Numbered from the stretch's first letter, positions 8,107 through 40,622 are shown. The stretch is DNA of 53,266 nt from a virus (IMGVR_UViG_3300035183_000848:1-53266); one strand, 5' to 3'. Translations and numbers: made by a program. Notes: generated from the sequence alone by a model not told the origin.

Positions 8107-8303
8107 CTAAATTCCTTTCGCTTTTTTATAAGCTTTTATTGCTTGTTCTTTATCGAGGAATTCTCCAAGCCAAACTCTTTTCCCTTTTATATATATTCTC
8201 GAACTCCATTTACCTTTGAAAAAATAAACACCTGTAATTGGTTTTGGTTTTTTATGGCTTGGCTTAAAGATTTTCTGGCATTTCCGTGCTTAAGTTTTCC
8301 CAT
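8107..8303 (-). pseudogene. Small AP2-domain gene interrupted by a frameshift
   Basis: MGKLKHGNARK... in frame 0. The -1 frame after A-AAA-AAC (8247-8253) gives ITGVYFFKGKWSSRIYIKGKRVWLGEFLDKEQAIKAYKKAK, an AP2 pattern. Confidence 0.6.
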
Positions 8304-18548: not shown

Positions 18549-18676
18549 TTTTTAAATTTTATAAGAATCTTTTTAACTAAGAAAGCCAACACTTTAATGA
18601 AAGTTAAAGACAAAAAAGAGCCAAAGACAACAAAACTAGTGGTTAAAAATACAAATATAAATATGTCTTTTACCAA
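18545..18676 (-). CDS. Small membrane protein (43 aa)
   Basis: TTG start, long hydrophobic stretch, ATGA-coupled to HNH. Confidence 0.4.
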   Translation of the reverse strand: MVKDIFIFVFLTTSFVVFGSFLSLTFIKVLAFLVKKILIKFKK

Positions 18677-18680
18677 TTTT

Positions 18681-18971
18681 CTAAACCCCTATCGCAATGT
18701 CATTTGCTTTTTTTAAAGCTTCCTCCGCCAAACCAGGGCCATAATTAACTTTGGTTTGACAATAGTCACACCATCCATAGCCATCCCCCATAGGCCTAAT
18801 ATTTTTTAACCCTTGATTGTGTTCATGTCCTAACCGCAACTCTTCTAAAAAACCGCTCAAAACCAAAACTATTGTTGCCAATTTCTTGGCTTGTATCGCT
18901 GCCAATACTTTGCAAAAATCTGAGTCAGAATCTCTTAAAACATTCTCGCAAAACTCTTTAAGCTCTTTCAC
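18681..18971 (-). CDS. Hypothetical protein, paralog of 19693-20010
   Basis: KLA.IVLVLS..L.EL and AL.KAN.IA.G shared. Confidence 0.6.
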   Translation of the reverse strand: MKELKEFCENVLRDSDSDFCKVLAAIQAKKLATIVLVLSGFLEELRLGHEHNQGLKNIRPMGDGYGWCDYCQTKVNYGPGLAEEALKKANDIAIGV

Positions 18972-19270
18972 TATTTAATCCTTGTAATAGATTGATCAAT
19001 TTCATGATCCTTTTTATCAGGCCAACCTAAATCTTCTGCAAATTTGTTTAATGTAACCCATAGTAGTTTTGCTTGAGCTTGATCTATCATACGTGATGAA
19101 ATTATTTTTCCATTTTCTTTAAAAACAATTTCTATTGTAAGTTGATTTCTAGGAGTATTTTTAACTAAAACTGAATAGGTTCCCGAACATCCTTCCCTAT
19201 AAGTGCACTTAAGCGAACCACCATTTCTAGTGAGCGCGATTTGAATATCTCTAGACTTTAAAACACTCAT
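18971..19270 (-). CDS. Hypothetical protein
   Basis: Operon ORF. Confidence 0.55.
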   Translation of the reverse strand: MSVLKSRDIQIALTRNGGSLKCTYREGCSGTYSVLVKNTPRNQLTIEIVFKENGKIISSRMIDQAQAKLLWVTLNKFAEDLGWPDKKDHEIDQSITRIK

Positions 19271-19278
19271 TGTAGGTT

Positions 19279-19499
19279 TTATTTCGCTTTTTTCTTCATT
19301 AAATCAATGCAAACATTTTTAAGTTTCAATGCCAGATGTTGAAGACCTTCAATTTCCCAATCCTTCATTCCATAGAGCTTGAGCTCTTTATACATTTCAG
19401 AGTCTCTCAATGGCATATCAAGAATAACGGCTGATGTTTTTGAGTTAGATTGTAATAATTACATAAATACTGCATTGCTTTTTCATCTTGATGTGACAT
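19279..19499 (-). pseudogene. Small hypothetical gene, apparently frameshifted in an A-run
   Basis: Adding one A in the run at 19437-19441 gives a continuous 73-aa ORF filling the gap. Confidence 0.4.
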
Positions 19500-19525
19500 C
19501 TAAATACCTATTAAATTTTAAAAAT

Positions 19526-19693
19526 TTATCGAACAAGTCTTGCTACAGCTAAAAATAAAACTGTAATTTTGTCGTCGGTACTTAATTCCTTAAATGGGCT
19601 TTCCTTTAATATCTTAGTAATAACAGGTATAGCCCTTTCATTTGGAAAACTATCAAAATACTTGTTCCACCAATCTATTTGGTCATTAGACAT
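19526..19693 (-). CDS. Hypothetical protein (55 aa)
   Basis: TAATG coupling and GAGG RBS. Confidence 0.5.
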   Translation of the reverse strand: MSNDQIDWWNKYFDSFPNERAIPVITKILKESPFKELSTDDKITVLFLAVARLVR

Positions 19694-20010
19694 TAATTAC
19701 CTCTCGCGATGGCGTTGGCTTTTTCTAAAGCTATTCTTACTGAATTATCTGCTGCCGCACAGGCATTTACTTCTTCAACTGTAGGACAACATTTATTATC
19801 AAAATAATGACCCATATCTTCCAAATGAGTTGATGTGTGTTCACTTAATTCTTGAAGCTCCTCACTCAAAACCAAAACTATTTGGGCTAATTTTTCAGCG
19901 GAGTTTACGGCAGTAGCTTTATATATGTCATTTGGATGAGAAGATTCATAACCTTCGCCATCGCAAATTGCCCAAGGTCTTGCTGTAGCTTTCGTTGCAT
20001 CTGAGGTCAT
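19693..20010 (-). CDS. Hypothetical protein (ATARPW, Ead/Ea22-like N-terminal motif)
   Basis: Start placed at ATG 20010; paralog of 18681-18971. Confidence 0.5.
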   Translation of the reverse strand: MTSDATKATARPWAICDGEGYESSHPNDIYKATAVNSAEKLAQIVLVLSEELQELSEHTSTHLEDMGHYFDNKCCPTVEEVNACAAADNSVRIALEKANAIARGN

Positions 20011-22480: not shown

Positions 22481-23203
22481 ATGATTAAAAAAATTAACTT
22501 GAGTATTAAAGATTTCTTGCCCTTTTTAAACCTTCTTTTTGGGTTGGGGCTTCTAGCAATTGCGTTTTTATTGGTGACGGGCTGTGCTACCCCGCGGACA
22601 AAATGGACTGACCATGTGATGCGCGTCTTGGTGGACCCCGAAGGCGTCACGGCTGACCATTACGTCAGAATCCAGCAAGCCCTAGTTGAGTCTGGAAAGT
22701 GGGTCGTGGTTGACCGTGGAATGGGCTACGACGCCATCAGGAAAGAACAGGAGCGCGAGCATAGGACCCAATCCGACCGGTTCCTTGACCGAGAAAAATT
22801 TGCCCACTGGGGCAAGCTCTATGGCGTTGGAGGGATTGTCGTGGCCCATGCCCAGTGCAAGATTAAAGACGGCATCTTTAAGCACAACTATCCTGACTGC
22901 CACCAATACCTGGCCATTGTTGACTCAAACTCTGGTGAGGTTATCGCGGCAGTCCAGGACCAGCAAGAGGGGGGGTCCTATGACTTCGACGCAGCCCCAT
23001 CTTGGGACAACATCGTGGCCAAGCTAAATAGCGCTTACCCATCGAGCTTCACTCCAAACAAAGACGATAAAATCCTGCGCGACTACAAAGAGCTGAGCAA
23101 GGAAGAAGCGATTAGGCAAAAAGAGCAGCTTGCCAAGGAAAATGCAGCCCGCGCCCCTACATCGGAGAAAGCTGAAAAAAAGGAGGCTTCAAATGAAAAA
23201 TAA
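22481..23203 (+). CDS. CsgG/HfaB/LpoB-like lipoprotein
   Basis: Lipobox LVTG-C; ALVESGKWVVVDR...IRKEQ...GKLYGVGGIV; IVDSNSGEVIA. Confidence 0.65.
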   Translation: MIKKINLSIKDFLPFLNLLFGLGLLAIAFLLVTGCATPRTKWTDHVMRVLVDPEGVTADHYVRIQQALVESGKWVVVDRGMGYDAIRKEQEREHRTQSDRFLDREKFAHWGKLYGVGGIVVAHAQCKIKDGIFKHNYPDCHQYLAIVDSNSGEVIAAVQDQQEGGSYDFDAAPSWDNIVAKLNSAYPSSFTPNKDDKILRDYKELSKEEAIRQKEQLAKENAARAPTSEKAEKKEASNEK

Positions 23204-23402: not shown

Positions 23403-23732
23403 ATGAAGAACTTAAAATCAATGATTGTTGTTGGACTATTGATTTCAAACCTAAGCCTTGCAAATGATGCAGCTGAAAAAATCATCAGGGAGTTTTGCGA
23501 GCACCACAACAAGATGAACGAGATGGACTACCAGCTCCGACATATGCCATATGATGCAAACTTGCAGTCAACACCTGAGATGAAGGCCTTGGAGAAGAAA
23601 ATATTCAAATATGACAACGACAAGCACTACAGGACGATCCACCAAAGGTTCGCAAAAGCATCGAAGAGGAATGGCTCACTGAGCCTGCTTGATTGCCAAA
23701 ACAGGGGTTTGCTAAAGCCAGCACAAAGATAG
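23403..23732 (+). CDS. Secreted hypothetical protein
   Basis: Signal peptide MKNLKSMIVVGLLISNLSLA; two mature Cys. Confidence 0.6.
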   Translation: MKNLKSMIVVGLLISNLSLANDAAEKIIREFCEHHNKMNEMDYQLRHMPYDANLQSTPEMKALEKKIFKYDNDKHYRTIHQRFAKASKRNGSLSLLDCQNRGLLKPAQR

Positions 23733-24480: not shown

Positions 24481-24945
24481 GTGACACTGCCGAGAGTCGT
24501 TAAAAATCATGAAGATGGAAAGACTTTCGAAAAAATCCTCAAGAACCAGGGAATGCGCTGTGGCTTGCTTGTGCTCAAGAACAACCTCAGTGCGAAGTAC
24601 ATCCAGGGCGGACGCGTGCTGCTCGAAAAATCAAACTTAGACTTCATGATCGCCAACCAAAGAGGGGTTGTCGGTTTCTTTGACGCCAAGTCATTCGACG
24701 GAGATTCATTCAAATTTTCTGAGATTAGTCCCCACCAGTTAGAGCGCGCCAAGCTCTACAATGACTATGAGATACCTGCTGGGTTCGTGGTATTCTTCAG
24801 GGAGCTGAAGAAGGTTTTTTTCTATAGTGGGAAAGCCATGATCACCAAGGGACCAAACAATTCATTTTCCCCTGAGGACGGTGTGTTGCTTGGGAATTTA
24901 TGGCAGTTCAACCTAAGCCTAATTCTTCTGAATGGTGGCGTTTAG
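24481..24945 (+). CDS. recU: RecU-like Holliday junction resolvase
   Basis: GKTFE, KSNLDF, FFDAKS, ISPHQL. Confidence 0.75.
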   Translation: MTLPRVVKNHEDGKTFEKILKNQGMRCGLLVLKNNLSAKYIQGGRVLLEKSNLDFMIANQRGVVGFFDAKSFDGDSFKFSEISPHQLERAKLYNDYEIPAGFVVFFRELKKVFFYSGKAMITKGPNNSFSPEDGVLLGNLWQFNLSLILLNGGV

Positions 24946-25200
24946 CAACTTCTTTAAATCCTGGTCAAAGAAAGATATCCAGCGCTTCGACTCTGGGTTG
25001 CAAAACGAGATGAAGTCAAACTTTCCGTTATTTAGCCTGCGGTAAAATCCATAGTTTTGGAGCTCAGGCTCCTTCTTGCAAAGCTCTTCGGGCAGTCCGT
25101 TGTTCAGCCACGCAGCTGCCTCTATTTCCTGCCTGCTTGGGCAACCAACTAATAAGAGCGCGATTGGAACCAATAGGACCAAAAAAATCTTAAGTGACAT
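24919..25200 (-). CDS. Lipoprotein, putative o-spanin
   Basis: Lipobox LVG-C; last gene of the late transcript. Confidence 0.5.
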   Translation of the reverse strand: MSLKIFLVLLVPIALLLVGCPSRQEIEAAAWLNNGLPEELCKKEPELQNYGFYRRLNNGKFDFISFCNPESKRWISFFDQDLKKLLNATIQKN

Positions 25201-26330: not shown

Positions 26331-26570
26331 TTACTTAACGTATGGCTTTAGTGAATCAGGTATCGGTGGAATCGGCAACCCCTTGGACTGCCTATTTTTG
26401 CAAGCCTCTTGGTAGGCGATATTCATGAGGGAGTTTAGCTTCTCAAGGCGACAGCCCATTTCGTTCAGGACGTCGACCAAGGCAAATATGTGCTCTTTCT
26501 TTGGGTTGATTGAGACGCCTGACTTTATCTGGTAGGCCTCTTTCAACCAATTTCTTTTTATTGTTGGCAC
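26331..26570 (-). CDS. Hypothetical protein
   Basis: GAGG RBS, GTG start. Confidence 0.55.
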   Translation of the reverse strand: MPTIKRNWLKEAYQIKSGVSINPKKEHIFALVDVLNEMGCRLEKLNSLMNIAYQEACKNRQSKGLPIPPIPDSLKPYVK

Positions 26571-26869
26571 GCCAATGACCTCTTGGATGGCTTACGTTTT
26601 AAGATTAGGGTTTCAATTACCGCGATTCTCTCGCGTATTGAGCCAAAGTGCTTTATCTCAATGGAGAGTGTCTTTATCTCGGATTCGAGGTCAGATATTT
26701 TTTCGGTTATGTTTTTTATCTCAGTCTGGTGGACCGGAAGCCTCGAGGTGACCGCCGAGTCTATCTTGTCAATCTTCAAGACCAACCTTCTTATGAACCA
26801 AATGTTGCCACCTAGCAAAATCCCCAACGCGCCAAAAAAGGAGGAAATTTCTATAGAACTAAGATTCAT
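26558..26869 (-). CDS. Single-TM coiled-coil protein (holin/XhlA-like)
   Basis: N-terminal TM then coiled coil ending RERIAVIE; GGAG RBS at ATG 26869. Confidence 0.5.
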   Translation of the reverse strand: MNLSSIEISSFFGALGILLGGNIWFIRRLVLKIDKIDSAVTSRLPVHQTEIKNITEKISDLESEIKTLSIEIKHFGSIRERIAVIETLILKRKPSKRSLACQQ

Positions 26870-26968
26870 TACCACTCCCAAGTTTAACTTACAGTCGCTG
26901 TAGTTTGGAGGTAGCTGAAATTTTCTGGCAGGAAAACCCATCAGCCGCTCTGACCATACAGCAATTGA

Positions 26969-27112
26969 TTATCGAATGGGATGGACTTCCTTGCAAATTA
27001 AATTATCTGGTCCGCCATCCAAACATTTGGCCCGTGGCACGAGGTACTGGTTTGCGGCACAACTCATGAACAAAGCACATAATATCAAGATTAAAAAATA
27101 ATATTTTTTCAT
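26969..27112 (-). CDS. Small lipoprotein (47 aa)
   Basis: MKKYYFLILILCALFMS-C lipobox, then two more Cys; below ORF-track cutoff. Confidence 0.55.
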   Translation of the reverse strand: MKKYYFLILILCALFMSCAANQYLVPRAKCLDGGPDNLICKEVHPIR

Positions 27113-27131: not shown

Positions 27132-29345
27132 TTATTTTGGACCCATGCAAATAATATAATAGTTAGAGTCTACAAATCCAGTGCCAATTGTTGAAGTACC
27201 AGGTATGACGTCCGTTGAACTAATCGAGGTACTAAAGATAGTTTTATCCCCTAGTACAGGAGAGTAAACACACACAGGAGTTGCGCTGAAATATCCTGTA
27301 GCAAAGGTTATATCGCATCTACCTACTGCCGAACGACTGATAGACGCTATCCATGAGCCGCTTTGAGAGCTGACGGCACAAGTTCCGTTGTTTGTTATAA
27401 ATGCGCGCCCGATCTGCTCTTGTCCGCTTGAGTTTGTCGCAACCGAGCCAGTCAAGATTGGAGCTGGCAAGCTTTGGCTGATGTTGATGATTTTCCAGGT
27501 CGAATTCGCTGTTGAGCTTGCATAGTTCGTCACGACGTTGCTGTTGGTGTTTAAGCCACGAATTTTAACCGTCTGAGACGCCAAGCTCGTGACGTTTAGA
27601 ACACCAACCAAAGTAGCAGATGAATAAGTCGTGGCATTAGCAGTGAAGTTCCCGGAAGCATCAAGCACGTTGTTAGAGCCATCAGTCAGCGCCACCTGCG
27701 TGCTGTTTGTAGTTCCGCCGTTGCCAAACATGCCGGTTGCAATAATCAAATATCTCCCAGTGGTTTTTGGAGTGAACGTCAATCCAGCGCCGTTGGCGAC
27801 AGTTGGGGTTGTAAAATTTACGTTGGTCAACTCAGTGACTGCGCAGCTAGCAGGGGTACTGAAGTCTGCATAGCTTGTGCTGGTCAATGTTGGATTGGAA
27901 GCGCAACCTGAAATATACCCACTCCATGAAGTTGATAGAATATTGGGAGTTAGCGCCAAGCTTGTTTGAGAAGGGTAGTAATAAACCCTAATTACGCCAG
28001 GGTGTGAGTTGGTTCCCCGAAGTCTGGCAGTACCACCAGAATCGACCTTGCCCCGAATAGAGAACGTCACGTTGCTCTGAGCACTGGTATAAGAAATTGA
28101 TTGGTTGATCCCAGGAGAATAAATTACGCCTCCTGATGCGCTCTGAAGCTGAGACAATTCCCTGGCGGTATTGGTTCCATCCCAGAATTGATAGTAAGAG
28201 CCAAAACCTTGGGTCAAGGAGTCAATTGTACCTTGATACTCAAGCTTGTACTCCCCAGGGGGAAGGCTTGCGAATTTCACTGCTGGAATGTTGGTTGATG
28301 GAGCTTGTGCTGCTCCAAACGCAGTGTAGGTACAACCACTTTGTGTTGAGAAATCTGTCAAAGTGGTCGATGTCGTGGACCAAGCTGAAGAACAACCGTT
28401 GATTACAACTCCACCCACCAAGAAGGCTTGGCTTACATTTGTGAGGTTTGCCGCAGATCCTAGATAGCAATTGTCTAGGTAAGCGGTTTTGGCTGAGCCG
28501 CTAGTCAAAACCAATTTCACACTACCAGAGGAGGGAAATATAAAGTTTAGCGGAAAATAACCATATGTTGAAGCTCCAAGTCCCGTGATCGTCGTACTTG
28601 CAATGGTGTTGGTTCCATCGGTGACGCTTAAGGTAAAGTCAGTTGCCGCGGTTTGAATATAGCAAGACACTAGTCCATTTTGGCCATAGAGCCCAGAGGG
28701 AATGGCAATTAAATTGCTAGAAAGCGTTTGTGACCCTGCTGATGTAACGAAGGATGCGGACTTTGAGCCGAATCCTACGTTAGCTGCAGTTGTGGTTGTG
28801 GTGAAAGTTCCCCCGGAGTTTGTCCAGTTAGTGGTTCCGGACTCGAACCCTGGGTTGTAGCTGCTCAACATGTTGAAGCCGCCCCCGCTTCCGCTACCAC
28901 CCAATTGGCCAGTGGTGATGGCGTTTGAGAGCTGGTCATTGATGGAGTTTGCAGTGACATAAATTTTTGTATCATTGATGAGCTGGCTCTTTTGACCACC
29001 GAAGGTAATGGTGTCGCCTGTTGCGGTGCCAGTTGCGTTTGCGCTCATTTGGATTTGACCGGCCGAGCAAGTTCCTGGCAGTCCAGCTATCGTAGTCCCT
29101 GATGGAATGTTTGCTGAAGTTGTTGTGTCGTAGACATATAACCCTGTCGCAAGCCCCGTGGTCGATCCAGGCGAAGAGATACAAGCCGAACCACTCGTGA
29201 GGTTGCCTGTTGTGGTCAATACCGCCGCGGTGATGTCGGTGAGGCTTTTGACATCTTCATTTTGAATTGAGGCAAGTCCAGCCAAAAGAGGCGAGGCTGC
29301 TAGCATGATTGATAAGAAGGTAAAGAGCAAGGTTAGGTTTTTCAT
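27132..29345 (-). CDS. Large signal-peptide-bearing multi-domain fibre/adhesin-like protein
   Basis: MKNLTLLFTFLSIMLAASPLLA signal peptide; NPGFESGTTNW CBM-like domain; 12 Cys in six neighbouring pairs. Confidence 0.7.
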   Translation of the reverse strand: MKNLTLLFTFLSIMLAASPLLAGLASIQNEDVKSLTDITAAVLTTTGNLTSGSACISSPGSTTGLATGLYVYDTTTSANIPSGTTIAGLPGTCSAGQIQMSANATGTATGDTITFGGQKSQLINDTKIYVTANSINDQLSNAITTGQLGGSGSGGGFNMLSSYNPGFESGTTNWTNSGGTFTTTTTAANVGFGSKSASFVTSAGSQTLSSNLIAIPSGLYGQNGLVSCYIQTAATDFTLSVTDGTNTIASTTITGLGASTYGYFPLNFIFPSSGSVKLVLTSGSAKTAYLDNCYLGSAANLTNVSQAFLVGGVVINGCSSAWSTTSTTLTDFSTQSGCTYTAFGAAQAPSTNIPAVKFASLPPGEYKLEYQGTIDSLTQGFGSYYQFWDGTNTARELSQLQSASGGVIYSPGINQSISYTSAQSNVTFSIRGKVDSGGTARLRGTNSHPGVIRVYYYPSQTSLALTPNILSTSWSGYISGCASNPTLTSTSYADFSTPASCAVTELTNVNFTTPTVANGAGLTFTPKTTGRYLIIATGMFGNGGTTNSTQVALTDGSNNVLDASGNFTANATTYSSATLVGVLNVTSLASQTVKIRGLNTNSNVVTNYASSTANSTWKIINISQSLPAPILTGSVATNSSGQEQIGRAFITNNGTCAVSSQSGSWIASISRSAVGRCDITFATGYFSATPVCVYSPVLGDKTIFSTSISSTDVIPGTSTIGTGFVDSNYYIICMGPK

Positions 29346-29355
29346 TATTTTCCCC

Positions 29356-29799
29356 TTAATACTGACTATAAACACAATATAAATCCTGTCCAGTGGCTGG
29401 CGCAGTAGAAAACGTCAATGTACTGCTAGAAATAGTATAATCCAATCCAGCGCCCTGTTTTAACAATTTTCCATCCAAATAGCACGCCACACCAACTCCG
29501 GCGCCCGGTGAGGTCGCCAGCGTAAATGTTGTCAAAGACCCATTCGGGTAGGGCGTGACCTTAGACTGGATGGTCTGGGTGGCCACTGGGAGCTGATTGA
29601 AAGTATTGTTTGACCCACTAATCGTCTTGTTCTGCAGAGTCAACGTATTGGTGTCGCTCGCGAAGTTCGATCCAGTGGAGGGGACAGAAATCGTGCTTCC
29701 GCCAGTTGAGTTCTGGATGCTGTCGATTTGCTTGGTCGTGGTGGATGAACCCCAAGCAGAAAGCGAGAGCAAGGTGCAAAGTATCGCAAGATTTTTCAT
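29356..29799 (-). CDS. Signal-peptide-bearing fibre-like protein
   Basis: Signal peptide; TLQNKTI motif; NG..TTFTL...YLDG...DYTI...LTF..AP..G domain. Confidence 0.7.
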   Translation of the reverse strand: MKNLAILCTLLSLSAWGSSTTTKQIDSIQNSTGGSTISVPSTGSNFASDTNTLTLQNKTISGSNNTFNQLPVATQTIQSKVTPYPNGSLTTFTLATSPGAGVGVACYLDGKLLKQGAGLDYTISSSTLTFSTAPATGQDLYCVYSQY

Positions 29800-29808
29800 G
29801 TCAATCCC

Positions 29809-30744
29809 TTAGTTGGATCGGCTAACTTCATTCCAGAATCCATTGCCATCGCACAAAAGCGTCAATACAGCGTTTAGGCCAGAAGTCCATGGGCCGTTTA
29901 AATTTAGCTTTGATCCCGACAAGGAAGCCTCGTCTTGAAGCTTAACCAAATTGGTTGCTGACTCACCAACGATTCTGGTGATTTGACCTGCCGCTGTGCA
30001 AGCAGTGATGCTTGGAGTTGCCGTTACTGTTGTCGTTCCGCTTGAGCTAGCCTGGATAAAAGCAATGTTTGCATAGGAGATACCAGTCAAGGTAATGCCT
30101 CCGCCTGCCGTGATGGACAACGGAGAAGCTTGGCTGCCATTTAAAGCTGGAGCTCCAACCCCCAGGGCTGAGCTGGTCCAAGTGGATCCGTTGGAGGTCA
30201 AAACATTTCCGCTGGTCCCCGGAGCAACGAGGCTTACCGCCGAAGTTCCATTCCCCACAACAACCGAACCAGCCGTTAGAGAACTTGCCCCGGTACCACC
30301 ATTTGCCACTCCCAATTGGCCGCTTACTGCAGCGGATTGGTTTAGCTGCAAAGCACCAACCGTTGGAACGCCTGAAGCTCCGGCTTGGAAAACTTGGTAC
30401 TGGCTACCTGCAGAAGTTGCTCCGATAGCTGATGTGCCGTTGCCATAGAGCATTCCGTTTGTGGTTAGCGAAGATGATCCGGTGCCGCCGTTTGAAACTG
30501 AAAGTTGACCACTAGAAATTGCGCTCGCGGGAACGTTTGAGAAAGTGTTGCTTGCCCCTGAAATGGTCTTGTTTTGAAGGGTGATGGTGTTGGTGTCCGA
30601 AACAAAGGTTGATCCAGTCGAGGGAACCGAGATTGCGCTCCCACCGGTTGAGTTCTGGATGCTGTCTACTTGCTTCAAAGTGGTGCTTGACCCAAAAGCC
30701 AAACTTGAAGCCAATACCAAGACGATTGAAAAGATTGCTCTCAT
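29809..30744 (-). CDS. Signal-peptide-bearing fibre-like protein
   Basis: Signal peptide; L.V.NGGTG.SSLT...GNGTSA fibre repeats; C-terminal domain paralogous to the tail-fibre tip. Confidence 0.7.
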   Translation of the reverse strand: MRAIFSIVLVLASSLAFGSSTTLKQVDSIQNSTGGSAISVPSTGSTFVSDTNTITLQNKTISGASNTFSNVPASAISSGQLSVSNGGTGSSSLTTNGMLYGNGTSAIGATSAGSQYQVFQAGASGVPTVGALQLNQSAAVSGQLGVANGGTGASSLTAGSVVVGNGTSAVSLVAPGTSGNVLTSNGSTWTSSALGVGAPALNGSQASPLSITAGGGITLTGISYANIAFIQASSSGTTTVTATPSITACTAAGQITRIVGESATNLVKLQDEASLSGSKLNLNGPWTSGLNAVLTLLCDGNGFWNEVSRSN

Positions 30745-30756
30745 TATTTTCCCCTT

Positions 30757-32850
30757 TTAAGCCCTTCTATTGTTTTCACTCCACACCGAGCCATCCCACA
30801 TCAACTCAATCGATTGGTTGTCAGTGAGGCTAATTGGCCCGTTGAGATCCAGCCCGTTGCCATCTGCAAGGGTGTAGTAATTTGTTGGGTCTGCGCCCTT
30901 CAAGGTTAACCTTTGTCCAATGGTTGTGCCAGCTGCAATTTGTGGAGTTGCAGTGATTGGAGTAACTCCACCAGAAGTTGGAGCTATCCACCAAACCTGG
31001 TCGTTTGAGTTTGCAGGAGTCAACCCAGAGCTTGGAGTCAAGACAATTGGAGACGCCTTGCTGCCATGGGCATCGATCATCCCACCACCGCCGCCTCCAG
31101 AAGATGAAAGTATGACATGGTCCCCCATGTCAGTTAGGGTCATATTTGTGCCAGGCACAAGCCCCTTGAGCTGGGCAATTCCGCTCATCACGCCTGCAAA
31201 AAGTCCAATTCCGCCATCAAGGTTCACCATGCCGGCGATGCCGCCAGAGCCCCCGCCACTGCCTCCGCCAACGGGGCTAAAGTAATCACAATAGATGGAT
31301 GATCCTACAGGGAGCGCACTTGACAAGACGATGTAGCTCACTGTGCCTTGGGTTAAAGAAAACTGACTTGGCAAAATCTTTAATCCATCAATATAAACCG
31401 AAACTCCCGACTTGCTGAACGGTGACCCACCAAGTCTGAACGTCAGGTTGTCTCCAGTGTTGACTGGGGTCTCTTGGTTCATGGCGAGGTAGCCCTGGTT
31501 TGCAAGCACGTACTCAAACAGAATTTGAGAAGCCAACGCAGGGGCAGAGTTAAAGGTAATTGTTTGACCAGAGAGTGACCACTCGGAGTCTGGAATTATT
31601 CTGCCATTGATTGAAACTCGAATTGACTGGGCTGAAAGCGGCAAATTTAACAAGTCAAAAGCAGTCGTTGTGCCATTGCCTGTGCTTGGAGGGTCCGTGG
31701 CCAGTATTGGAAATGAGGTTGGCCCAGAGTTTGATGGTGTTCCAGAGACGAGAAAGTGTGTGGTGGTTACCGCAACTCCAACTGGAACTATTTTTTCCCC
31801 AGCTCCAGTAGGCGCCGGAGTGACGATACCGCCAGGTGTCGAAGGGTCGGCATAATACTCGGCGCCCGCAACTAAAGATGTTAGTGAATAAAATCCATTA
31901 TACAAGACCTCAGCTACTCCTCCACTTGAGACGTCAGAGATAACCATCCCTGCAAACGTCCCACGGACTGCCTGGTTTGCTGGGGAGCAATCAAGTGGAT
32001 AAACCCTACCTGCGGTGCGGCCTGAGTCGGTGGGGTTGCCAGGAGAAATATAGACAACTTGTCCAGCGGTTAAGTTTTGTCCAGCCACCACCTCGTAAAC
32101 CGTGAAATAACCCGATCCCAACAGGGGCTTGTACTCGCCGTCTCTTAAGATTATCTGTGACGTGTTGACGCCAAGGTAAACAACTGGTCCAGACCTGCGA
32201 GCGAAAATTATTTGGTTCACGCCAGGCACGAATGAAGCGCTTGATGCAGTTTGGACAGTGATTGGCCCTGCTGCGGAGAACACAAAAGTTGCACCGTTTT
32301 GCGTCGACGTTGCATTGTTGCTGATCGTGACGCTGTTGGAGCCCACCGCCGTTACCGTTGTGTTTGCTGGAATTCCAGGGCCTGTGACGTTCATGCCGAC
32401 TGTAATGCCATTGATAAAGGTCAATGCACTGATGCTGTTCGAGGAGTTTACGGTATTGCCTTGAGCCACAAGCGGGCTGTTTAAGTTGACATACGCCAAT
32501 TCACCATCGCTCAAAGTCACTGAACCCGCGTTGACCTGGTTTGAAGAATCGGGTACAGAGGGGATGACGATATTGAAAGCTGAGCTCCAAGATAGGTCAC
32601 CACTTGTGGCCGAGAACGCCCATGTTCCGCCATTTAGCAAGCGCATGGCTTGGTCTGGCATGCCTCCAGTGATCAATGGATCCAAGTATTGAATCCACTG
32701 GTCCGCAAGCCAAAAAAGCCAGTTCATATACTCCGGAGGGGGGGCTTGGCCTGATTGCCATCCTGCCAAAGCATAATTGGCTGGTGGTTGCTGTACTTTA
32801 GACGGATTGCCGTCTGTCCAATTGAGATAAGCCTGCGGGCGATTTACCAT
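30757..32850 (-). CDS. Tail fibre protein (baseplate-attached)
   Basis: N-terminal GW..GQAPPPEYMNWLF...QWIQYL attachment motif; follows wedge genes; no signal peptide. Confidence 0.8.
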   Translation of the reverse strand: MVNRPQAYLNWTDGNPSKVQQPPANYALAGWQSGQAPPPEYMNWLFWLADQWIQYLDPLITGGMPDQAMRLLNGGTWAFSATSGDLSWSSAFNIVIPSVPDSSNQVNAGSVTLSDGELAYVNLNSPLVAQGNTVNSSNSISALTFINGITVGMNVTGPGIPANTTVTAVGSNSVTISNNATSTQNGATFVFSAAGPITVQTASSASFVPGVNQIIFARRSGPVVYLGVNTSQIILRDGEYKPLLGSGYFTVYEVVAGQNLTAGQVVYISPGNPTDSGRTAGRVYPLDCSPANQAVRGTFAGMVISDVSSGGVAEVLYNGFYSLTSLVAGAEYYADPSTPGGIVTPAPTGAGEKIVPVGVAVTTTHFLVSGTPSNSGPTSFPILATDPPSTGNGTTTAFDLLNLPLSAQSIRVSINGRIIPDSEWSLSGQTITFNSAPALASQILFEYVLANQGYLAMNQETPVNTGDNLTFRLGGSPFSKSGVSVYIDGLKILPSQFSLTQGTVSYIVLSSALPVGSSIYCDYFSPVGGGSGGGSGGIAGMVNLDGGIGLFAGVMSGIAQLKGLVPGTNMTLTDMGDHVILSSSGGGGGGMIDAHGSKASPIVLTPSSGLTPANSNDQVWWIAPTSGGVTPITATPQIAAGTTIGQRLTLKGADPTNYYTLADGNGLDLNGPISLTDNQSIELMWDGSVWSENNRRA

Positions 32851-33470: not shown

Positions 33471-35633
33471 CTAAACATAGCTTACAGCAACGTTAAACGC
33501 TTCAAATATAGGTTCCTCTTCGGGCTGCATTTGTAAGTTAACATTTGTTGTAGGATTCGGCATCCTATCAAAATAAAGAGTATAGGAAACAATCCCTGGA
33601 ATCGAATTGAAAGCTCCGATTAGTCCGTTTGAACCAAACCCTATGATCAGGCCACCAATTCCAACCTCGTTCCCAATCGATACGATGTCTTTTTGGATGT
33701 CTCCAATCGAGAGGGGGTTGAACTTCGCCTTTGGGTTGAGCCCAGAGTTGGAGTCGCCTGGAATATTGTAGAGGTCGGTGACCATGGAAATTGAAACATA
33801 GATGGGAACTTGAGTTGGCCTTGAAAATCCAATGTTGTAAATATTCCCGTATTGGTCAACCGATTGAATGACGGTGCTGCCATAGGGCTGGATTCCAGCG
33901 GGTCCAGAAGCCAAGATGGTGTCCGCAACTGTTTGGTCATCCCCACCTGCAACCACGATCTCAAAAGATTTTCCAGGTCTGCCAAAGGCAACGGATATAG
34001 TGCTGCCAGTGGTGTTGTTTGAAACCGCAATTAAACCCTGGGGCTGCCCACCAAAAGAACCGTTGAAATCTACCGTAAACCCAGCAGTGACAGATCCTGA
34101 AACCACGACGTTGCTATAGCTGCCGCCCAACGCTCGGATTGCGGTCTGCATTTGTCCGTTTGTCACGTTGTAGGGCAAGGAAGAAGTCATATTCCCATTT
34201 ACCACAAGCTTGAAGCTCCCGCTTCCAGGAGGCACGTTGAAAGTGACGACTTGAAGTGCGGCTTCATTGACGTTTTGAAAACCCACTACCGCGGTGACTC
34301 CGCTTATGACTGAAACCTTGGAAATAATTGCCGCTAGTGGTCCGTTGGCATTCGCATCCAAGTTGGCCTGGCGTCTTTCCAGGGCCTCAGTGTCGTTTTC
34401 GACGTTGGTGCCAGTGACGCAGTCTAGTTGGTTGGTGACTCCTGTCCACCCACTAATTGGAGTGACAATAGAGGTTAGTGTGCCTGCACCAACGAAATTT
34501 GGACCCGTTTGGGCGCAAGTCGCAGAACCCACTCCTTGGGCTGGTGCACCTTGGGCTGAGTTGATGACGGCAACGTTGGTGACGCTCGTGCCGTTCATCA
34601 AGGTATTTGTTGGAACTGTGATCAATGCTTGGGGTTGTGATCCAGATGATGGTTGGCTTGTGTAGGGAGTTCCTACACCAAAGTTAAAGTTATATCCAGC
34701 CGCTGCGCTAGTTACGGTCAAGTCAGTGTAGGGGTATTTGGAAATTGAAGAGTCATAGAGATTGTTGATGTCGGCTTGGATTGAATCAACACTAGTAATT
34801 GTGACTCCTAAAGTGTTGCCCCCGATGGTCACCAACGGGTTGGTGACACTTCCCCAGGTGATTTGGAACCCTGAAGCAAAAGAGCCTGACACGGTGGCAC
34901 CAGAGTACCCACTCAAGGCTTGAATTGCAGATTGAACTTGGGCTGCATTGGCATTGTAGGGAATGTTTGCAGTTGTGAGTGTGCTTCCCGCCGCCGACAA
35001 GGATAGCGTAAAATTTCCAGCCACTGGGACGGAACTAAATGATAGCTGGCTTATTGCAGGTAGGGCATTCCAAGGGATAAGTCCCGTTGTCATTTGAAAT
35101 CCGCTTTGACCCACTATCGAAAGTGAATAGTTTCCAGAGTCTGGCGTATTGCTTTGGATAAAAGTTTGAATCGCATTCACCGCAGCCTGGATGGTGATGT
35201 CCGCGTCTATGGTGAATTGAACCGGCGGTGAAGATTGGTCTTGGATGATTGAATTTTGGGGGACGATAGTACCTGGAGTTCCCAAAGCGACAAGTCCATA
35301 AAGCGTGATGCCATTTGCCTGGGTTACTGGGTTGAGGTTGGTCCTAGTGGCAGAGGCCTGCTTTCTCTTTAGGTTGTTTAGCGCCAAAATATTGTCAACC
35401 GAAGTTCCCTCGGCACCCGATGGGTATCTCGAAGAATAAAGTGTCTGTCCCAACTGCCACAACAGCGCAAAGTCACCAGACAAAATCCCGATGATTTGCC
35501 CAAAGTTTGAGGATGGAGCAAGGTTGATGTTGTTTCCAAAGACTGTCCTGAATTGGCTCTCGAGCTGAGATATAATGTCTTGCTGCGATGGGGCAACAAA
35601 ACCAGTAGAAGTTATTCCGTATTGAGTGCTCAT
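33471..35633 (-). CDS. Baseplate J-like wedge protein with inserted repeat domains
   Basis: YGITSTGF, SAEGTSVD, GTNVENDTEALERR, FSRPT; three inserted ~70-aa repeats. Confidence 0.85.
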   Translation of the reverse strand: MSTQYGITSTGFVAPSQQDIISQLESQFRTVFGNNINLAPSSNFGQIIGILSGDFALLWQLGQTLYSSRYPSGAEGTSVDNILALNNLKRKQASATRTNLNPVTQANGITLYGLVALGTPGTIVPQNSIIQDQSSPPVQFTIDADITIQAAVNAIQTFIQSNTPDSGNYSLSIVGQSGFQMTTGLIPWNALPAISQLSFSSVPVAGNFTLSLSAAGSTLTTANIPYNANAAQVQSAIQALSGYSGATVSGSFASGFQITWGSVTNPLVTIGGNTLGVTITSVDSIQADINNLYDSSISKYPYTDLTVTSAAAGYNFNFGVGTPYTSQPSSGSQPQALITVPTNTLMNGTSVTNVAVINSAQGAPAQGVGSATCAQTGPNFVGAGTLTSIVTPISGWTGVTNQLDCVTGTNVENDTEALERRQANLDANANGPLAAIISKVSVISGVTAVVGFQNVNEAALQVVTFNVPPGSGSFKLVVNGNMTSSLPYNVTNGQMQTAIRALGGSYSNVVVSGSVTAGFTVDFNGSFGGQPQGLIAVSNNTTGSTISVAFGRPGKSFEIVVAGGDDQTVADTILASGPAGIQPYGSTVIQSVDQYGNIYNIGFSRPTQVPIYVSISMVTDLYNIPGDSNSGLNPKAKFNPLSIGDIQKDIVSIGNEVGIGGLIIGFGSNGLIGAFNSIPGIVSYTLYFDRMPNPTTNVNLQMQPEEEPIFEAFNVAVSYV

Positions 35634-36335: not shown

Positions 36336-37055
36336 TTAAACCCCCTTCAAGGTCGTAAGCTTTGCCAAAAGAGTCTGCAGCGTGTTTTCAATTTGCTGGT
36401 ATTGCAAGAAAGCATTCAACTGCTGTGGTCCCATTAATGTGTTAACTGTATCAGTGGATAGTGTTGCACTCAATAGCTGAGCTTGGTCTGTGATCTGAAC
36501 CAAGAGGTCCATGAGTTCGTTTTGGTTGTTCTTTGCGATGAAGGTCCCCGCCTTTTGAACCTTGAGCTGGGCGTTGCCATTGGTCACCACTAGGTCAGTT
36601 GTGTTGTCCTGGGTCTGCTGGTTGAAGGGGTAAAGCCCCGGGATAAAAATGGCATCTGAAATGTCATGGTTCCTTGCGTCTTGGGGATCAACTAGCCCAC
36701 CTTGAACACTCCAAACATCCAAACTTCGGTCACAAAAGAGCGCTATCCCTGTATCCCCCACTGCAACGGGGAGCTTGATTGAGTAGTCTGCACCCATCGG
36801 CATTGCAACCATCACGCTTTGAATGGGCGGCAAGGTAACTACGGTTCCGTCGTAATAACGAGACTTGAGAAGGATTTGAATATCTACCTTCTGATTTCCA
36901 ATCACGTTTACGACCTGGGCAGGCATCCAAACATGCTTTTCAACAAAAGCCGCCTCTATGGCGTTTTTGATCACTTGGTCAAGCGGAAGTGTCTCTGGCG
37001 TATAGTCCTGTGAGTTTGGGTCGTATGGGTCTAGGGTAGGGTAGTTCCATGTCAT
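36336..37055 (-). CDS. Baseplate central spike (Gp138-like)
   Basis: PVAVGDTGIALFCDRSLDVW...RNHDISDAIFIPG. Confidence 0.85.
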   Translation of the reverse strand: MTWNYPTLDPYDPNSQDYTPETLPLDQVIKNAIEAAFVEKHVWMPAQVVNVIGNQKVDIQILLKSRYYDGTVVTLPPIQSVMVAMPMGADYSIKLPVAVGDTGIALFCDRSLDVWSVQGGLVDPQDARNHDISDAIFIPGLYPFNQQTQDNTTDLVVTNGNAQLKVQKAGTFIAKNNQNELMDLLVQITDQAQLLSATLSTDTVNTLMGPQQLNAFLQYQQIENTLQTLLAKLTTLKGV

Positions 37056-38026
37056 GCGAGCAATGCTCCTGGTGACGCGTTACTAGGCAATAAGTTGACA
37101 TTTTGTAAGTTTTGCTGGGCGTTGATCCTTACACAAGTGCACTCAACACCCCAGTGGTTTTCGTGGGTATCACCCTTGTAGTGAGCCTCTCTAATTTTGT
37201 AAAATCCATTTAGGCTAGAGTTTGCAGTCGAGTCGTTTGTCTTGAGCTGGACCAAGGCTCCAGGGACCAACCTTGGATTCAAGATTGAGCTGAACTTTGT
37301 GACAAACGCGTTCTGAGAAGGCACGCCAATCATTCCGGTGTCTGCAGAGACAACGATGGCCTCATTCCCAAGGTGCCCTGTGATGGGGATGATGTTTAAG
37401 TTCCCATTTTGGACGCTCCACTCCAACCCCATTGGCTTTAGGAGCTTGTCCAGTGTCTTTGAACATGGTCCACGTGCCACAAACCCACGGTTAAAAGGAT
37501 TGTTGTTGGTCAAGAAAACTACTCCGTTGCCAATCCCGCTAGGGTTGATTGAGTTCGGAAGGTTCATGGCGTTGGCGATGTCCTTTAAAATTTGTAGTGG
37601 GGTAATCCCAGGGCCATATGACCTATCTAAATTTGCCATGACGATGGATCCTTCCCCATCGCCGCACTCAAGGGTGGTTACAATCTCCGAACCCTCGCGC
37701 TTTGAGCCAATGCCATCGGGAAGAACGTTCCCAATGAAAATAGTGTCAATTAGTGACTGGTAACCTGCCTTCAGCATCACAAGGTAACCTTTTTTTATTG
37801 AGTTACGTGATTGGGAAGACATGTTGTAGATTTCAATCTTTGACTTGTTTGCGCTTCCAACCAAATTCTTGTTGATGTCAAACTTTATCCTGAGCGGCGA
37901 GGGGTTTTTCCCCTGGGTCCCGTACTGGGTTGCGTTCGTCTGGTTTGGAGCCCCAATCAGCAGTACGTAGGCCCTGCCAAAGAGTGGTCCAGGGTTCAAG
38001 AATGGGTTGTACAAATTATAGCTCAT
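37052..38026 (-). CDS. Baseplate hub protein
   Basis: KIEIYNM, LKAGY, IFIG, CGDG, WSVQNG, TGMIGVP. Confidence 0.85.
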   Translation of the reverse strand: MSYNLYNPFLNPGPLFGRAYVLLIGAPNQTNATQYGTQGKNPSPLRIKFDINKNLVGSANKSKIEIYNMSSQSRNSIKKGYLVMLKAGYQSLIDTIFIGNVLPDGIGSKREGSEIVTTLECGDGEGSIVMANLDRSYGPGITPLQILKDIANAMNLPNSINPSGIGNGVVFLTNNNPFNRGFVARGPCSKTLDKLLKPMGLEWSVQNGNLNIIPITGHLGNEAIVVSADTGMIGVPSQNAFVTKFSSILNPRLVPGALVQLKTNDSTANSSLNGFYKIREAHYKGDTHENHWGVECTCVRINAQQNLQNVNLLPSNASPGALLA

Positions 38027-38368: not shown

Positions 38369-39081
38369 TGAGAACCTCCTGGTAATTTACTTAATACTTT
38401 TGATAGTCCAGATTGCTCGCCTTCTTGGAATACTGACTTCAAGCTTTCTTGCCCTATATCTTGCTTGTTCGCGGACAATCCAGGGTTTGCGAAAACCGAT
38501 ACCGAAACTGACTGTGGAGTTACCAGCAAAAGTTGCTTTAGAGACACGGTAAACAAGATGCAGTTTCCTGTTTCAGCGTCCCTTGGAACAGAGAGCGAAG
38601 TAATCCACATGTTCTTGTACATCTGTGGAGACAACGAGGTGAGCACATCGACGGGCTGGCCTGACTGCGCAATCCTCAAGATGCTGGCATAGTTTGCCAC
38701 AGACCTCCTGGGGGACTTGGTCAAGGCAGAAAAAAGCGAAAGGGCGCCAGCTGCTCCGATAACGCCTACAGGAGGAAGCAAAGCGGAGGCAGCCGTCACC
38801 CCAACTTCAGTCAAAATGGCTTGCAGCCCACCTATGGGAGAGTCGGTAATAATACCTGTGAGCTGCAAGCTAAACGGCTTCACAATGATGTGGTCGGAGA
38901 TCGTCTTGCCGTTTTCTATGGGAAATTCAGTGGCCGTACAATCTTGTTGGTGGGTTTCTTTTATTGAGGCGTCAAACGTAATGAGAGTGCCCCCGTTTTG
39001 CTTGAACTGAACCCTAGTTTTACCTGATAGCAGTGAGGACAGTGTCTGGCCGCCTACCGCGGCTATTCCTGTGATTGCCAT
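38365..39081 (-). CDS. Dit-like tail tube initiator
   Basis: DASIKETH....TEFPIENG..ISDHII.KP; YKNMWITSL. Confidence 0.8.
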   Translation of the reverse strand: MAITGIAAVGGQTLSSLLSGKTRVQFKQNGGTLITFDASIKETHQQDCTATEFPIENGKTISDHIIVKPFSLQLTGIITDSPIGGLQAILTEVGVTAASALLPPVGVIGAAGALSLFSALTKSPRRSVANYASILRIAQSGQPVDVLTSLSPQMYKNMWITSLSVPRDAETGNCILFTVSLKQLLLVTPQSVSVSVFANPGLSANKQDIGQESLKSVFQEGEQSGLSKVLSKLPGGSQ

Positions 39082-40622
39082 TAGTACGCCACCGTGGGTT
39101 TAAGGGAGCGATTCACCTCCCGGCTGACCCGATCCAAGTGCTCTCGGATTCCATCCTTGACGCTTTGGTGGACCTCTTTGTGGTCCACTCCCGCTGGGAC
39201 ATTGATGGTGACCGGAGCGTTGATCTGGTTGGTTTGAACGACCGAGTTGTCTGAGCTTTCCGTAGTCCCGAAATAAGACTTATCGGTCGGAGCAGACGCG
39301 GGTAGGTTTTGAAATCCGCCTGCGACCTTGGCCACCGGAGATTCTTCTGGGGTATTTAGACCAAACAAACTTCCAATAGAACCTGCTATGGCTTTAAACT
39401 TTTCGGATGCCGAATCGAATAACTTGCCAAATCCTTCCCCAGTGGAAAGAAAGTTCATGACCTTTACAATCGCATCTCCGATTGAGTTCAAGAAGCTTTC
39501 AATCGGCTTCAAAACCCCAAGCCAATCTAGCCACTGGCTAAGCCATCCTTTTTCGCCATGGAGTGCCGCCCATAGCTCTTGGACTGCCAAAACAACGGCT
39601 CCAATGCCCAAGATCCAAGGTGTAAGGGGATTTGCCAAGAGCAATCCATTGAAAAATTTAAACCCTTCGGCAAGTAATCCTACCGAGCCCTTGAGTTTGT
39701 CAAAAGCCAAGGTTGCAGCAATGATGGCGCCTGCAATAGCCCCTATGGTCTCAACAAATCGAAAGAGGGTCTTGTGCTCTTCAGCAAACCTTTGGATGAC
39801 CTTGATCATGCCTTCAATGACGCCAAACAAGAACCCAAGGCCATAGATAAACTTCTTAATCCACTCCTCGATATCCACTTTCACGAGCTCTAGATTGGCT
39901 TTCCAGAAATCAAGGATCCTATTTACGATATAAGTCAACTCTGGGGCAAAGATTGATGCCATCCAGGCACTGATGCCCTTCATCGCGGCCCAAAGCTTTT
40001 GGAAGGCATGCTCAACTTCAACGAGTGCCTCGAGCTGCTCCTCTGAGAGGATGGCCCCTAGTTTTTCTGCCTCCTCACCAGTGCGCTTGATGGCGTCTGG
40101 ACCTTGGGAGATCCAACCCACCATGGTGCGGCTGCCTCGGCCCATGAGCTGGGTTGAGATTGCGGCTTTCTTGGAGAAATCATCTATGTTCTGAAACTTC
40201 TGTGAAAGCGCCAAGAGCACTTGGTCTGCAGTCTTGAAGTTTTGAATTTGCAGGGCATTGAAGCCAGCTTCCTGGAAAGCCTTTTGGGCCTCTGCGCTGC
40301 CTTGCTTTGCCATGTAGAGGTTTCTAGACAACTTGAACATCGCGGCCGACATCTCTTCTTGAGAGACGGCAGACTGTTTGGCAGAAAAGGCCAACTTTTG
40401 AAACTCCTCAGCCGTGACGCCAATGCTTTGGGCTGCGACGTGGATTTCCTCTGCGAAGTGGGCAAACTTTTCAACCAGCTCATAGATGCCCTTGGCCACT
40501 TCCATTGCAGCCAGAAACTCCAAGCGCCTCTTTATGCCCTCGAGTTGCTCTTCAAGGTGGTGGAGCTTCTCTTTGCCTTCAATGTCAAATCCAATTTTGA
40601 CGAGCAGTTCTTTCAGGTTCAT
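39081..40622 (-). CDS. Tape measure protein
   Basis: LKELLVKIGFD N-terminus, helical Ala-rich, follows chaperones. Confidence 0.85.
   Translation of the reverse strand: MNLKELLVKIGFDIEGKEKLHHLEEQLEGIKRRLEFLAAMEVAKGIYELVEKFAHFAEEIHVAAQSIGVTAEEFQKLAFSAKQSAVSQEEMSAAMFKLSRNLYMAKQGSAEAQKAFQEAGFNALQIQNFKTADQVLLALSQKFQNIDDFSKKAAISTQLMGRGSRTMVGWISQGPDAIKRTGEEAEKLGAILSEEQLEALVEVEHAFQKLWAAMKGISAWMASIFAPELTYIVNRILDFWKANLELVKVDIEEWIKKFIYGLGFLFGVIEGMIKVIQRFAEEHKTLFRFVETIGAIAGAIIAATLAFDKLKGSVGLLAEGFKFFNGLLLANPLTPWILGIGAVVLAVQELWAALHGEKGWLSQWLDWLGVLKPIESFLNSIGDAIVKVMNFLSTGEGFGKLFDSASEKFKAIAGSIGSLFGLNTPEESPVAKVAGGFQNLPASAPTDKSYFGTTESSDNSVVQTNQINAPVTINVPAGVDHKEVHQSVKDGIREHLDRVSREVNRSLKPTVAY

Follow-up and report, generated by a model that had tools for sequence, protein, structure and literature searches.

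Fibre-like proteins encoded beside a phage tail-fibre gene appear to be exported and disulfide-bonded

The window analysed here is a 53,266-nucleotide stretch that represents a complete phage genome with terminal repeats from a microbial mat. It carries a tail fibre of 697 amino acids (30757-32850, minus strand), followed on the same strand by three fibre-like genes, which we call A (29809-30744), B (29356-29799) and C (27132-29345). The fibre lacks a signal peptide and has a C-terminal β-sandwich at residues 607-691. It matches Pfam PF25692 Phage_depo_C (E 1.9e-5, 25.5 bits against a cut-off of 25), and it gave PHROG hits to tail fibre and virion structural proteins. A gave no Pfam hit at E <= 0.01.

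Gene A encodes 311 residues and consists of a signal peptide (residues 1-18, nt 30691-30744), a conserved N-terminal module (N-module) to about residue 70, an NGGTG-repeat shaft at 71-200, and a C-terminal β-sandwich at 200-311 containing Cys249 and Cys298. Gene B encodes 147 residues, with a signal peptide at residues 1-17 (nt 29749-29799), the same N-module as A (60% identity over residues 6-95), and then a small domain that is also present twice in the fibre (392-447 and 460-523). Gene C encodes 737 residues, with a signal peptide at residues 1-22 (nt 29280-29345), a conserved N-module (IQNEDVKS...), and then five β-rich domains with 12 cysteines. The motif TLQNKTI occurs in A (55) and B (54), while LSVSNGGTG (81) and LGVANGGTG (144) occur in A.

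Directly after C is a small ORF of 47 residues (26969-27112, minus strand) with a lipoprotein-like N-terminus (MKKYYFLILILCALFMSC), and then a 127-residue protein (26558-26941, minus strand) with one N-terminal membrane segment and a helical C-terminal part. The latter matches phrog_1009, of unknown function, and is possibly lysis-related, being spanin-like by eye. We also identified two further signal-bearing fibre-like genes, which the original prediction had overlooked. The fourth (5471-7078, minus strand; 535 residues) starts with MRTMLFFCLLMIATIARA, with D as the next residue, and its homologues lie beside the cassette described below in other phages. The fifth (4956-5489, minus strand; 177 residues) has a C-terminal domain of the same family as the A and fibre tips, and matches phrog_31104 with E 4.4e-10.

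The start codons are well defined. The same Shine-Dalgarno sequence and spacer, AAGGGGAAAATAATG, precedes both A and C, and AAGGGA precedes B; the gaps to the upstream gene are 12 nt, 9 nt and an 11-nt overlap. C starts at the ATG at 29345 (MKNL...), and we rejected the upstream GTG at 29375. The N-termini of A, B and C read MRAIFSIVLVLASSLAFG followed by S, MKNLAILCTLLSLSAWG followed by S, and MKNLTLLFTFLSIMLAASPLLA followed by G, respectively. Each has a basic residue, an uncharged hydrophobic core and small residues at -3 and -1, as expected for a Sec/signal peptidase I signal peptide. There is no lipobox Cys at +1 and no RR in the n-regions, and we rejected a Tat or lipoprotein signal.

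A signal-like N-terminus is present in 112 of 120 listed homologues of A and 116 of 120 listed homologues of C, and is conserved in kind rather than in sequence. These counts were obtained using our own hydrophobicity and -3/-1 heuristic rather than a dedicated signal-peptide predictor, and the heuristic misclassifies some sequences (for example P0274). By eye, at least 5 of the 12 exceptions are 5'-truncated fragments, and 6 of the other 7 still look signal-like. In an alignment of 70 sequences the -3 column is A 56, V 7, S 6, N 1, the -1 column is A 57, G 11, S 2, and the +1 column includes S 34, G 13, T 10 and A 8. An Ala-x-Ala cleavage site is conserved.

The cysteines are at residues 249 and 298 in A; at 8 (inside the signal peptide), 106 and 142 in B; at 55, 93, 228, 293, 318, 338, 481, 501, 656, 677, 692 and 733 in C; and at 288 and 521 in the fibre. 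The original prediction of 2, 2 and 12 cysteines in the mature parts, and of 2 in the fibre, is thus exact. In A, the columns of Cys249 and Cys298 are C/C in 50, (G or A)/W in 20, and a single Cys in 0 of 70 sequences. In C, the pair 228-293 has both cysteines in 33 sequences, one in 0 and neither in 25; the pair 55-93 has both in 14 and one in 0; and the pair 692-733 has both in 56 of 58. The pairs 318-338, 481-501 and 656-677 do not co-vary cleanly in our alignment. The number of cysteines beyond residue 30 is even in 57 of 58 C sequences, and over the listed families 74 of 79 (A) and 103 of 114 (C) Cys-containing members have even counts. The cysteines behave as disulfides.

A word-based search with the fibre tip alone found only 4 proteins, and an exhaustive profile search was used instead, which found 2800 cluster representatives of the tip domain. 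Among the best 150, there were 8 with a signal and C/C, 57 with a signal and no Cys, 0 with no signal and C/C, 68 with no signal and no Cys, and 17 that could not be determined (Fisher p = 0.0026). Even Cys counts occur in 19 of 26 signal-bearing members compared to 14 of 41 signal-less ones (p = 0.0026). The A-type pair was thus found only in signal-bearing members of a family of which about half (65 of 133 classifiable) carries a signal. We note that 57 of these 65 signal-bearing proteins lack the pair, so export does not require it.

A 202-309 matches fibre 595-695 at 37% identity (E 1e-12), and B 86-144 matches fibre 392-447 and 460-523 (E 7e-5 and 6e-6). The module match between C and the fibre is weak (E 0.15). 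Mature A is predicted to be an intertwined homotrimer from its first mature residue. The model scored 0.90, against 0.00 for the best of 3 controls, with the runs agreeing in at least 95% of contacts and a partner pLDDT of at least 94. This mark was reached by 20 of 30 proteins solved as pairs and by 1 of 23 solved as single chains, although the result may reflect likeness to solved trimeric fibres. Foldseek searches with the A model found only weak tailspike and baseplate matches (best E 1.7e-3), and a profile of the A family found nothing among PDB sequences (best E 0.56, gelsolin).

C is predicted to be a string of lectin-type β-sandwiches (model pLDDT 83.8). Its top PDB match is 8okw, the tip of the secreted Bdellovibrio MAT adhesin Bd2734 (E 7.9e-11, TM 0.81-0.84 by target), and the match is also significant by sequence (E 1.1e-9 over residues 309-453). 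Further hits are to carbohydrate-binding modules and C1q/TNF folds. A search of BFVD returned uncultured phage proteins and actinophage minor tail proteins. Homologues of C keep the N-module but swap C-terminal domains (PF00386, PF07484, PF21722, PF26696).

The distal part of the fibre, A, B and C move together as a cassette, a feature not noted in the original prediction. They occur in this order at 34-66% identity in four related loci (L015, L018, L020 and L092), and L019 has the same order, with 33% for B; A and the distal fibre part also occur in two further loci, L016 and L017, where the cassette is only partly present. The distal fibre is conserved in 7 of 7 related loci, from about residue 380-470 to the end in the five full-cassette loci, and only over residues ~588-696 in L016, L017 and L019. 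The baseplate genes of the window find nothing or only weak matches in these loci. Homologues of the fourth signal-bearing gene lie at 7013-9277 in L092 (44% identity) and 5807-8689 in L017, and a weak homologue of the 127-residue protein follows the cassette in L018.

There is no Phage_integrase or Resolvase match in the genome. No promoter excess was seen (13 found against 12.6 expected), and the terminator-like sites (24 against 12.6) do not separate the three genes from the fibre. We therefore rejected a lysogenic-conversion "moron". Attempts to identify the host did not succeed. Scans of genome contigs with A, P0081, P0183 and the sheath protein gave only repeat-region matches or nothing, a metagenome scan with P0183 returned two short contigs, and a cluster look-up gave no names. 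The nearest isolated TerL, from Aeromonas phage 56, is 44.6% identical. C has no match in 50,697 phage records, and A has one match covering 17% of it. In the unnamed phylum of an Oligoflexales bin, the N-terminal part of C gave weak hits in 3 of 131 genomes and the Bd2734-like domain hit 1 of 131, which is itself a C-family gene next to a phage fibre; this is too little to name a host.

A, B and C are real late-operon phage genes. The original prediction, that their products are exported and fold in the periplasm, is supported by every computational test that we could run, and we consider it very likely, on computational evidence alone, that they are exported by Sec, cleaved by signal peptidase I and disulfide-bonded. 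We are similarly confident that A is a trimeric fibre, and consider it probable that these proteins are extracytoplasmic glycan-binding adhesins. Each has a short conserved N-module followed by parts copied from the phage's own fibre (the tip β-sandwich in A and a small mid-fibre domain in B), with C adding lectin-type jelly-roll/TNF-C1q-like domains of the kind used as adhesive tips by Bdellovibrio MAT fibres. Together with the distal fibre they would form a mobile host-recognition cassette.

The original prediction offered three fates for these proteins, namely addition to virions at lysis, display on the cell, or action as decoys, and none was excluded. We tentatively favour the first: the fibres would wait in the periplasm until holin and endolysin action mixes the compartments, and then dock by their N-modules onto the co-inherited distal part of the virion fibre, giving the particle extra, oxidatively folded glycan-binding fibres. 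The docking step is inferred, has no direct support, and is rather less likely than not. No tailed phage appears to be known to add a Sec-exported protein to its particle, and co-transfer with the distal fibre is also expected if the proteins merely recognise the same host surface.

A less likely alternative is that the fibres are cell-bound or free adhesins, the phage counterpart of MAT fibres, which change what the infected cell or its debris adheres to and never join the particle. MAT fibres have the same layout and are surface displayed (PMC10769870), C shares a homologous tip domain with Bd2734, the cassette works with unrelated baseplates, and long signal-bearing NGGTG-repeat proteins exist in bacterial genome bins (signal-like N-termini, by eye, in 5 of the 11 loci examined). 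However, the genes sit in the late structural operon of a genome without an integrase, so expression comes just before lysis; no route across the outer membrane is evident; the nearest look-alike clusters of A are 94-100% viral; and the benefit to a virulent phage is unclear.

It is improbable, though possible, that the exported copies mask the phage's own receptor on the infected cell and its debris, blocking superinfection or stopping progeny being wasted, as the T5 Llp and Cor lipoproteins may do. The tip of A is a paralogue of the virion fibre tip, the position beside the receptor-binding gene resembles the presumed Llp/Cor pattern, and a small lipoprotein-like ORF follows C. On the other hand, lectin-type domains suggest abundant glycan ligands, which are hard to mask stoichiometrically; up to five long multi-domain exported fibres, taking more than 10% of the genome, are far more than known masks need; and periplasmic proteins do not face the outer surface before lysis. 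Finally, although the position in the tail module and the fold matches to tailspike and baseplate parts would suit ordinary cytoplasmic fibres with buried anchors or misassigned starts, this is very unlikely given the ribosome-binding sites, the conserved signal pattern and AxA site in drifting sequence, the all-or-none Cys pairs and even counts, and the absence of the A-type pair from all 68 signal-less members examined.

Textbook assembly of tailed phages is wholly cytoplasmic, and host-range prediction and engineering assume that receptor-binding proteins are made in this way. The family described here is large and purely metagenomic (3751 homologues of A at E <= 1e-3 among the 8000 candidates scored). 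We found no description in print, although Supplementary Tables 3-4 of PMC10769870, which list MAT-like proteins in other organisms, might already include phage-encoded ones. If the proteins join virions, this would be a new, extracytoplasmic arm of assembly, a possible but unproven reading under which roughly half of one large fibre-tip domain family would follow this route, and it would be a reason why such fibres would fail when expressed in the cytoplasm. If they stay on cells, phages carry MAT-like adhesins that could alter adhesion in microbial mats, and may be the source or sink of the domains that predatory bacteria use to seize prey. Either way, the cassette is a ready set of stable, secretable glycan-binding modules.

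Other proteins with signal or lipoprotein signal peptides are encoded next to receptor-binding genes, but those are small single-domain outer-membrane proteins or lipoproteins, with no fibre architecture and no homology to the fibre, and some have their own promoters; A, B and C have no lipobox. PblA/PblB of Streptococcus phage SM1 seem to be tail-fibre-like proteins that act as adhesins on the bacterial surface after release by phage lysis, but they would lack signal peptides and be true virion proteins, and the host is Gram-positive. The MAT (mosaic adhesive trimer) fibres of Bdellovibrio bacteriovorus (PMC10769870) share with the proteins described here a signal peptide followed by a conserved N-terminal part, a trimeric phage-fibre-like shaft and exchangeable adhesive tips with disulfides. 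The genes described here are encoded by a phage in its late tail operon rather than by the bacterial chromosome, are much shorter (147-737 against about 600-1100 residues), and no S74 domain was found in them; their N-module is about 50-90 residues and the MAT domain roughly 130. With canonical tail fibres, including the neighbouring 697-residue fibre, they share domains, a trimer model (for A), position in the tail module, a conserved N-terminus with swapped tips, and transfer together with the distal fibre. They differ in that a predicted cleavable signal peptide replaces the virion-attachment N-terminus, and in that predicted disulfide pairs are present in the exported versions and absent from the cytoplasmic ones.

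The genome under study is complete at 53,266 bp with direct terminal repeats, and it holds no tRNA genes. Nearly all of its genes lie on the minus strand. PHROG matches were used to identify the portal (51046-52578), major head protein (45524-46516), tail sheath (41704-43056), tape measure (39081-40622), baseplate hub (37052-38026) and a baseplate wedge/J-like protein (33471-35633). The virus is therefore a contractile-tailed phage. TerL lies at 62-1537, and its nearest isolated relative is Aeromonas phage 56, at 44.6% identity. No Phage_integrase or Resolvase domain was found, while the same searches gave matches in 14 and 12 of 14 control genomes. Two public sequencing runs containing this DNA are labelled microbial mat metagenome. 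Two genes on the minus strand, 7134-8105 and 8290-9222, match glycosyltransferase family 9 (heptosyltransferase-like; E 7.2e-4, which is below the cut-off, and 7.7e-10), suggesting a Gram-negative host and possible modification of its lipopolysaccharide core. A 607-residue protein (48137-49960, minus strand) matches both head-maturation protease and "DNA methyltransferase" PHROGs over its C-terminal 120 residues or so, and may be a fused or mis-named head protein. GC content drops to 32.5% at 18001-20000, compared to 43-54% elsewhere; this stretch lies next to an HNH endonuclease gene (17985-18548).

The baseplate genes are followed by a 697-residue fibre without a signal peptide (30757-32850), of which the last 85 residues pass the Pfam threshold for Phage_depo_C, and then by three genes that we call A (311 residues), B (147 residues) and C (737 residues). 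The gaps between these genes are 12 nt, 9 nt and an 11-nt overlap. The sequence AAGGGGAAAATAATG precedes A and C, and AAGGGA precedes B, which fixes the starts directly before the hydrophobic N-termini and sets the start of C at 29345. The promoter scan was at chance, and no terminator-like site separates the genes from the fibre; the analysis supports their being late-operon genes. The cysteine counts of the original prediction (2, 2 and 12 in the mature parts of the three proteins, and 2 in the fibre) are exact, as are the fibre motifs that it reported in two of them (L.V.NGGTG and TLQNKTI).

We then examined whether the signal peptides are conserved. A has 3751 homologues at E <= 1e-3 among 8000 scored candidates, and C has 148. 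Among the 120 listed for each, a signal-like N-terminus was found in 112 and 116 respectively, using a heuristic of our own that requires an uncharged hydrophobic window followed by small residues at −3/−1. At least 5 of the 12 exceptions are 5'-truncated fragments by eye, and 6 of the other 7 still look signal-like by eye. The sequences of these N-termini differ freely, but the pattern does not: in an alignment of 70 sequences the −3 column is Ala in 56, Val in 7, Ser in 6 and Asn in 1, and the −1 column is Ala in 57, Gly in 11 and Ser in 2. Conservation of kind without conservation of sequence is what a working signal peptide shows. Several C homologues have Gln right after the likely cleavage site (for example ...AFAQ and ...ARAQG), which a paper on Porphyromonas phages describes as the Bacteroidetes Q rule (PMC10367356), and the family may therefore span phages of several host phyla.

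Signal-like N-termini are not confined to A, B and C. Two more fibre-like genes on the minus strand, 4956-5489 (177 residues) and 5471-7078 (535 residues), have them, and lie far from the tail module, just upstream of a Gly-rich 336-residue gene (3936-4946) and the terminase genes. Further small proteins that appear to be exported are encoded at 26969-27112 and 24919-25200 (minus strand) and at 22481-23203 and 23403-23732 (plus strand); three of these have lipoprotein-like N-termini (FMSC, LLVGC, LVTGC) and one has a plain signal peptide. By our heuristic and by eye, about 9 genes of this phage encode exported proteins.

The cysteines behave as disulfides. In A, the two Cys columns are C/C in 50 sequences and (Gly or Ala)/Trp in 20, and there is never a lone Cys; the signal-less fibre has the Ala/Trp state. 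In 58 sequences of C, the pair 228-293 has both residues in 33, one in 0 and neither in 25; the pair 55-93 has both in 14 and one in 0; and the pair 692-733 has both in 56. The three other neighbouring pairs do not co-vary cleanly in our alignment. The number of Cys beyond residue 30 is even in 57 of 58 sequences, and over the listed families 74 of 79 (A) and 103 of 114 (C) Cys-containing members have even counts.

As a sharper test of export, a profile of the tip domain was built from 13 sequences of this genome and five related phages and scored against 1.84 billion cluster representatives, giving 2800 hits at E <= 1e-3. Of the best 150, 8 are signal-bearing with the C/C pair, 57 are signal-bearing without the pair, none are signal-less with the pair, and 68 are signal-less without the pair (although one of these looks signal-bearing by eye); the remaining 17, of which 3 are C/C, could not be determined. 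Among those that could be classified, the pair therefore occurs only where a signal peptide is present (Fisher p = 0.0026). Even Cys counts are also enriched, at 19 of 26 in signal-bearing members compared to 14 of 41 in signal-less ones (p = 0.0026). On this classification, about half of this fibre-tip family carries an export signal.

The C-terminal 110 residues of A are a paralogue of the fibre tip (37% identity, E 1e-12). A and B share their first 90 residues or so (60% identity), while the remainder of B matches a domain present twice in the fibre (E 6e-6 and 7e-5) and also matches a PHROG tail-fibre family. The first domain of C resembles fibre residues 127-191 only weakly (E 0.15). Two C-family proteins carry an A-type N-module (…TDTLTGRLSTDTLTNKT…) on a C-type body, so the N-modules themselves appear to be shuffled between these fibres.

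The structures of A and C were predicted using AlphaFold2. A has a pLDDT of 82.8, with a very confident C-terminal sandwich, and C has a pLDDT of 83.8 and is predicted to form five β-rich domains. Mature A (residues 19-311) folded as three copies scored 0.90, compared to 0.00 for the best of 3 controls; the runs agree in at least 95% of contacts, and the partner pLDDT is at least 94. The same mark was reached by 20 of 30 proteins solved as pairs and by 1 of 23 solved as single chains. Because trimeric phage fibres have been solved, this result shows likeness to them rather than independent proof. In the model, the interface runs continuously from residue 19 to about 206.

Interestingly, the best PDB match of the C model is the tip of the Bdellovibrio MAT adhesin Bd2734 (8okw), with E 7.9e-11, a target TM-score of 0.81-0.84 and 25-27% identity. 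The match is also significant by sequence alone (E 1.1e-9, C residues 309-453). MATs are displayed on the predator surface, and the Bd2734 tip is a divergent TNF-like lectin fold with disulfides (PMC10769870). Other matches of C are carbohydrate-binding modules and C1q/TNF folds. Homologues of C keep the first 130-170 residues at 55-70% identity, while their C-terminal parts change, and some carry precomputed matches to PF00386, PF07484, PF21722 or PF26696. We note that bacterial genome bins (Oligoflexales, "Proteobacteria", Elusimicrobia and Geobacteraceae) encode NGGTG-repeat proteins of 700-2280 residues with signal-like N-termini and a different conserved start (…SYSGRL/TYQGYL…), which are possibly MAT-like fibres outside Bdellovibrio.

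The proteins of this genome were compared with seven related loci (L015-L020 and L092) by tblastn. In L015, L018, L019, L020 and L092, the distal part of the fibre, A, B and C occur in that order, with A, B and C being 33-66% identical to the proteins described here. The shared part of the fibre runs from residues 378-466 of our fibre to the end, but only from residue 595 in L019. L016 and L017 hold part of the cassette. The five baseplate genes and the downstream genes find nothing there, with the exception of weak hits in L017 (three baseplate-region genes, including the hub) and in L018 (the wedge/J-like gene and the 127-residue membrane protein). L019 has a different, apparently non-contractile, tail module, as judged by eye. 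The neighbours in these loci also start with signal-like N-termini. In L092, a lysozyme-like gene and membrane proteins follow C, and after them comes a homologue of the 535-residue signal-bearing protein; a homologue of this protein also lies beside the cassette in L017. The unit that moves between phages is therefore the distal fibre part plus the putatively exported fibres, and it sits next to the lysis genes.

On the basis of these computational results, we infer that A, B and C, with their signal-peptidase-I type signals, are exported by Sec, oxidised and trimerised in the periplasm, and become free to leave only at lysis. The layout, a conserved N-module with a variable tip, is that of something anchored at one end, and the anchor could be the virion or the cell envelope. 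We tentatively favour docking onto the co-inherited distal fibre when lysis mixes the compartments, given that genes that move together with a distal fibre are usually its physical partners, that the phage has no integrase, and that the presence of several different fibres together may be reminiscent of branched multi-fibre receptor-binding systems. This step has no precedent that we know of and no direct support here, and it remains no more than a possibility. An alternative, which we consider only slightly less likely than docking, is that the proteins are cell-bound or free MAT-like adhesins. Receptor masking is more doubtful still, and the absence of any export is very improbable.

Full-text literature searches found no paper describing Sec-signal-bearing tail-fibre paralogues in a tailed phage. 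The nearest were reports of signal-peptide endolysins (PMC8878798) and of unexplained signal-bearing proteins of Porphyromonas phages (PMC10367356). The proteins may work like MAT fibres, and are not shown to be members of that family: the defining MAT N-terminal domain could not be compared, and the genes are phage-borne, with look-alike clusters being 94-100% viral. They also fail one defining feature of ordinary virion fibres, namely the signal-less attachment N-terminus. They would be categorically new if the virion-docking reading is right.
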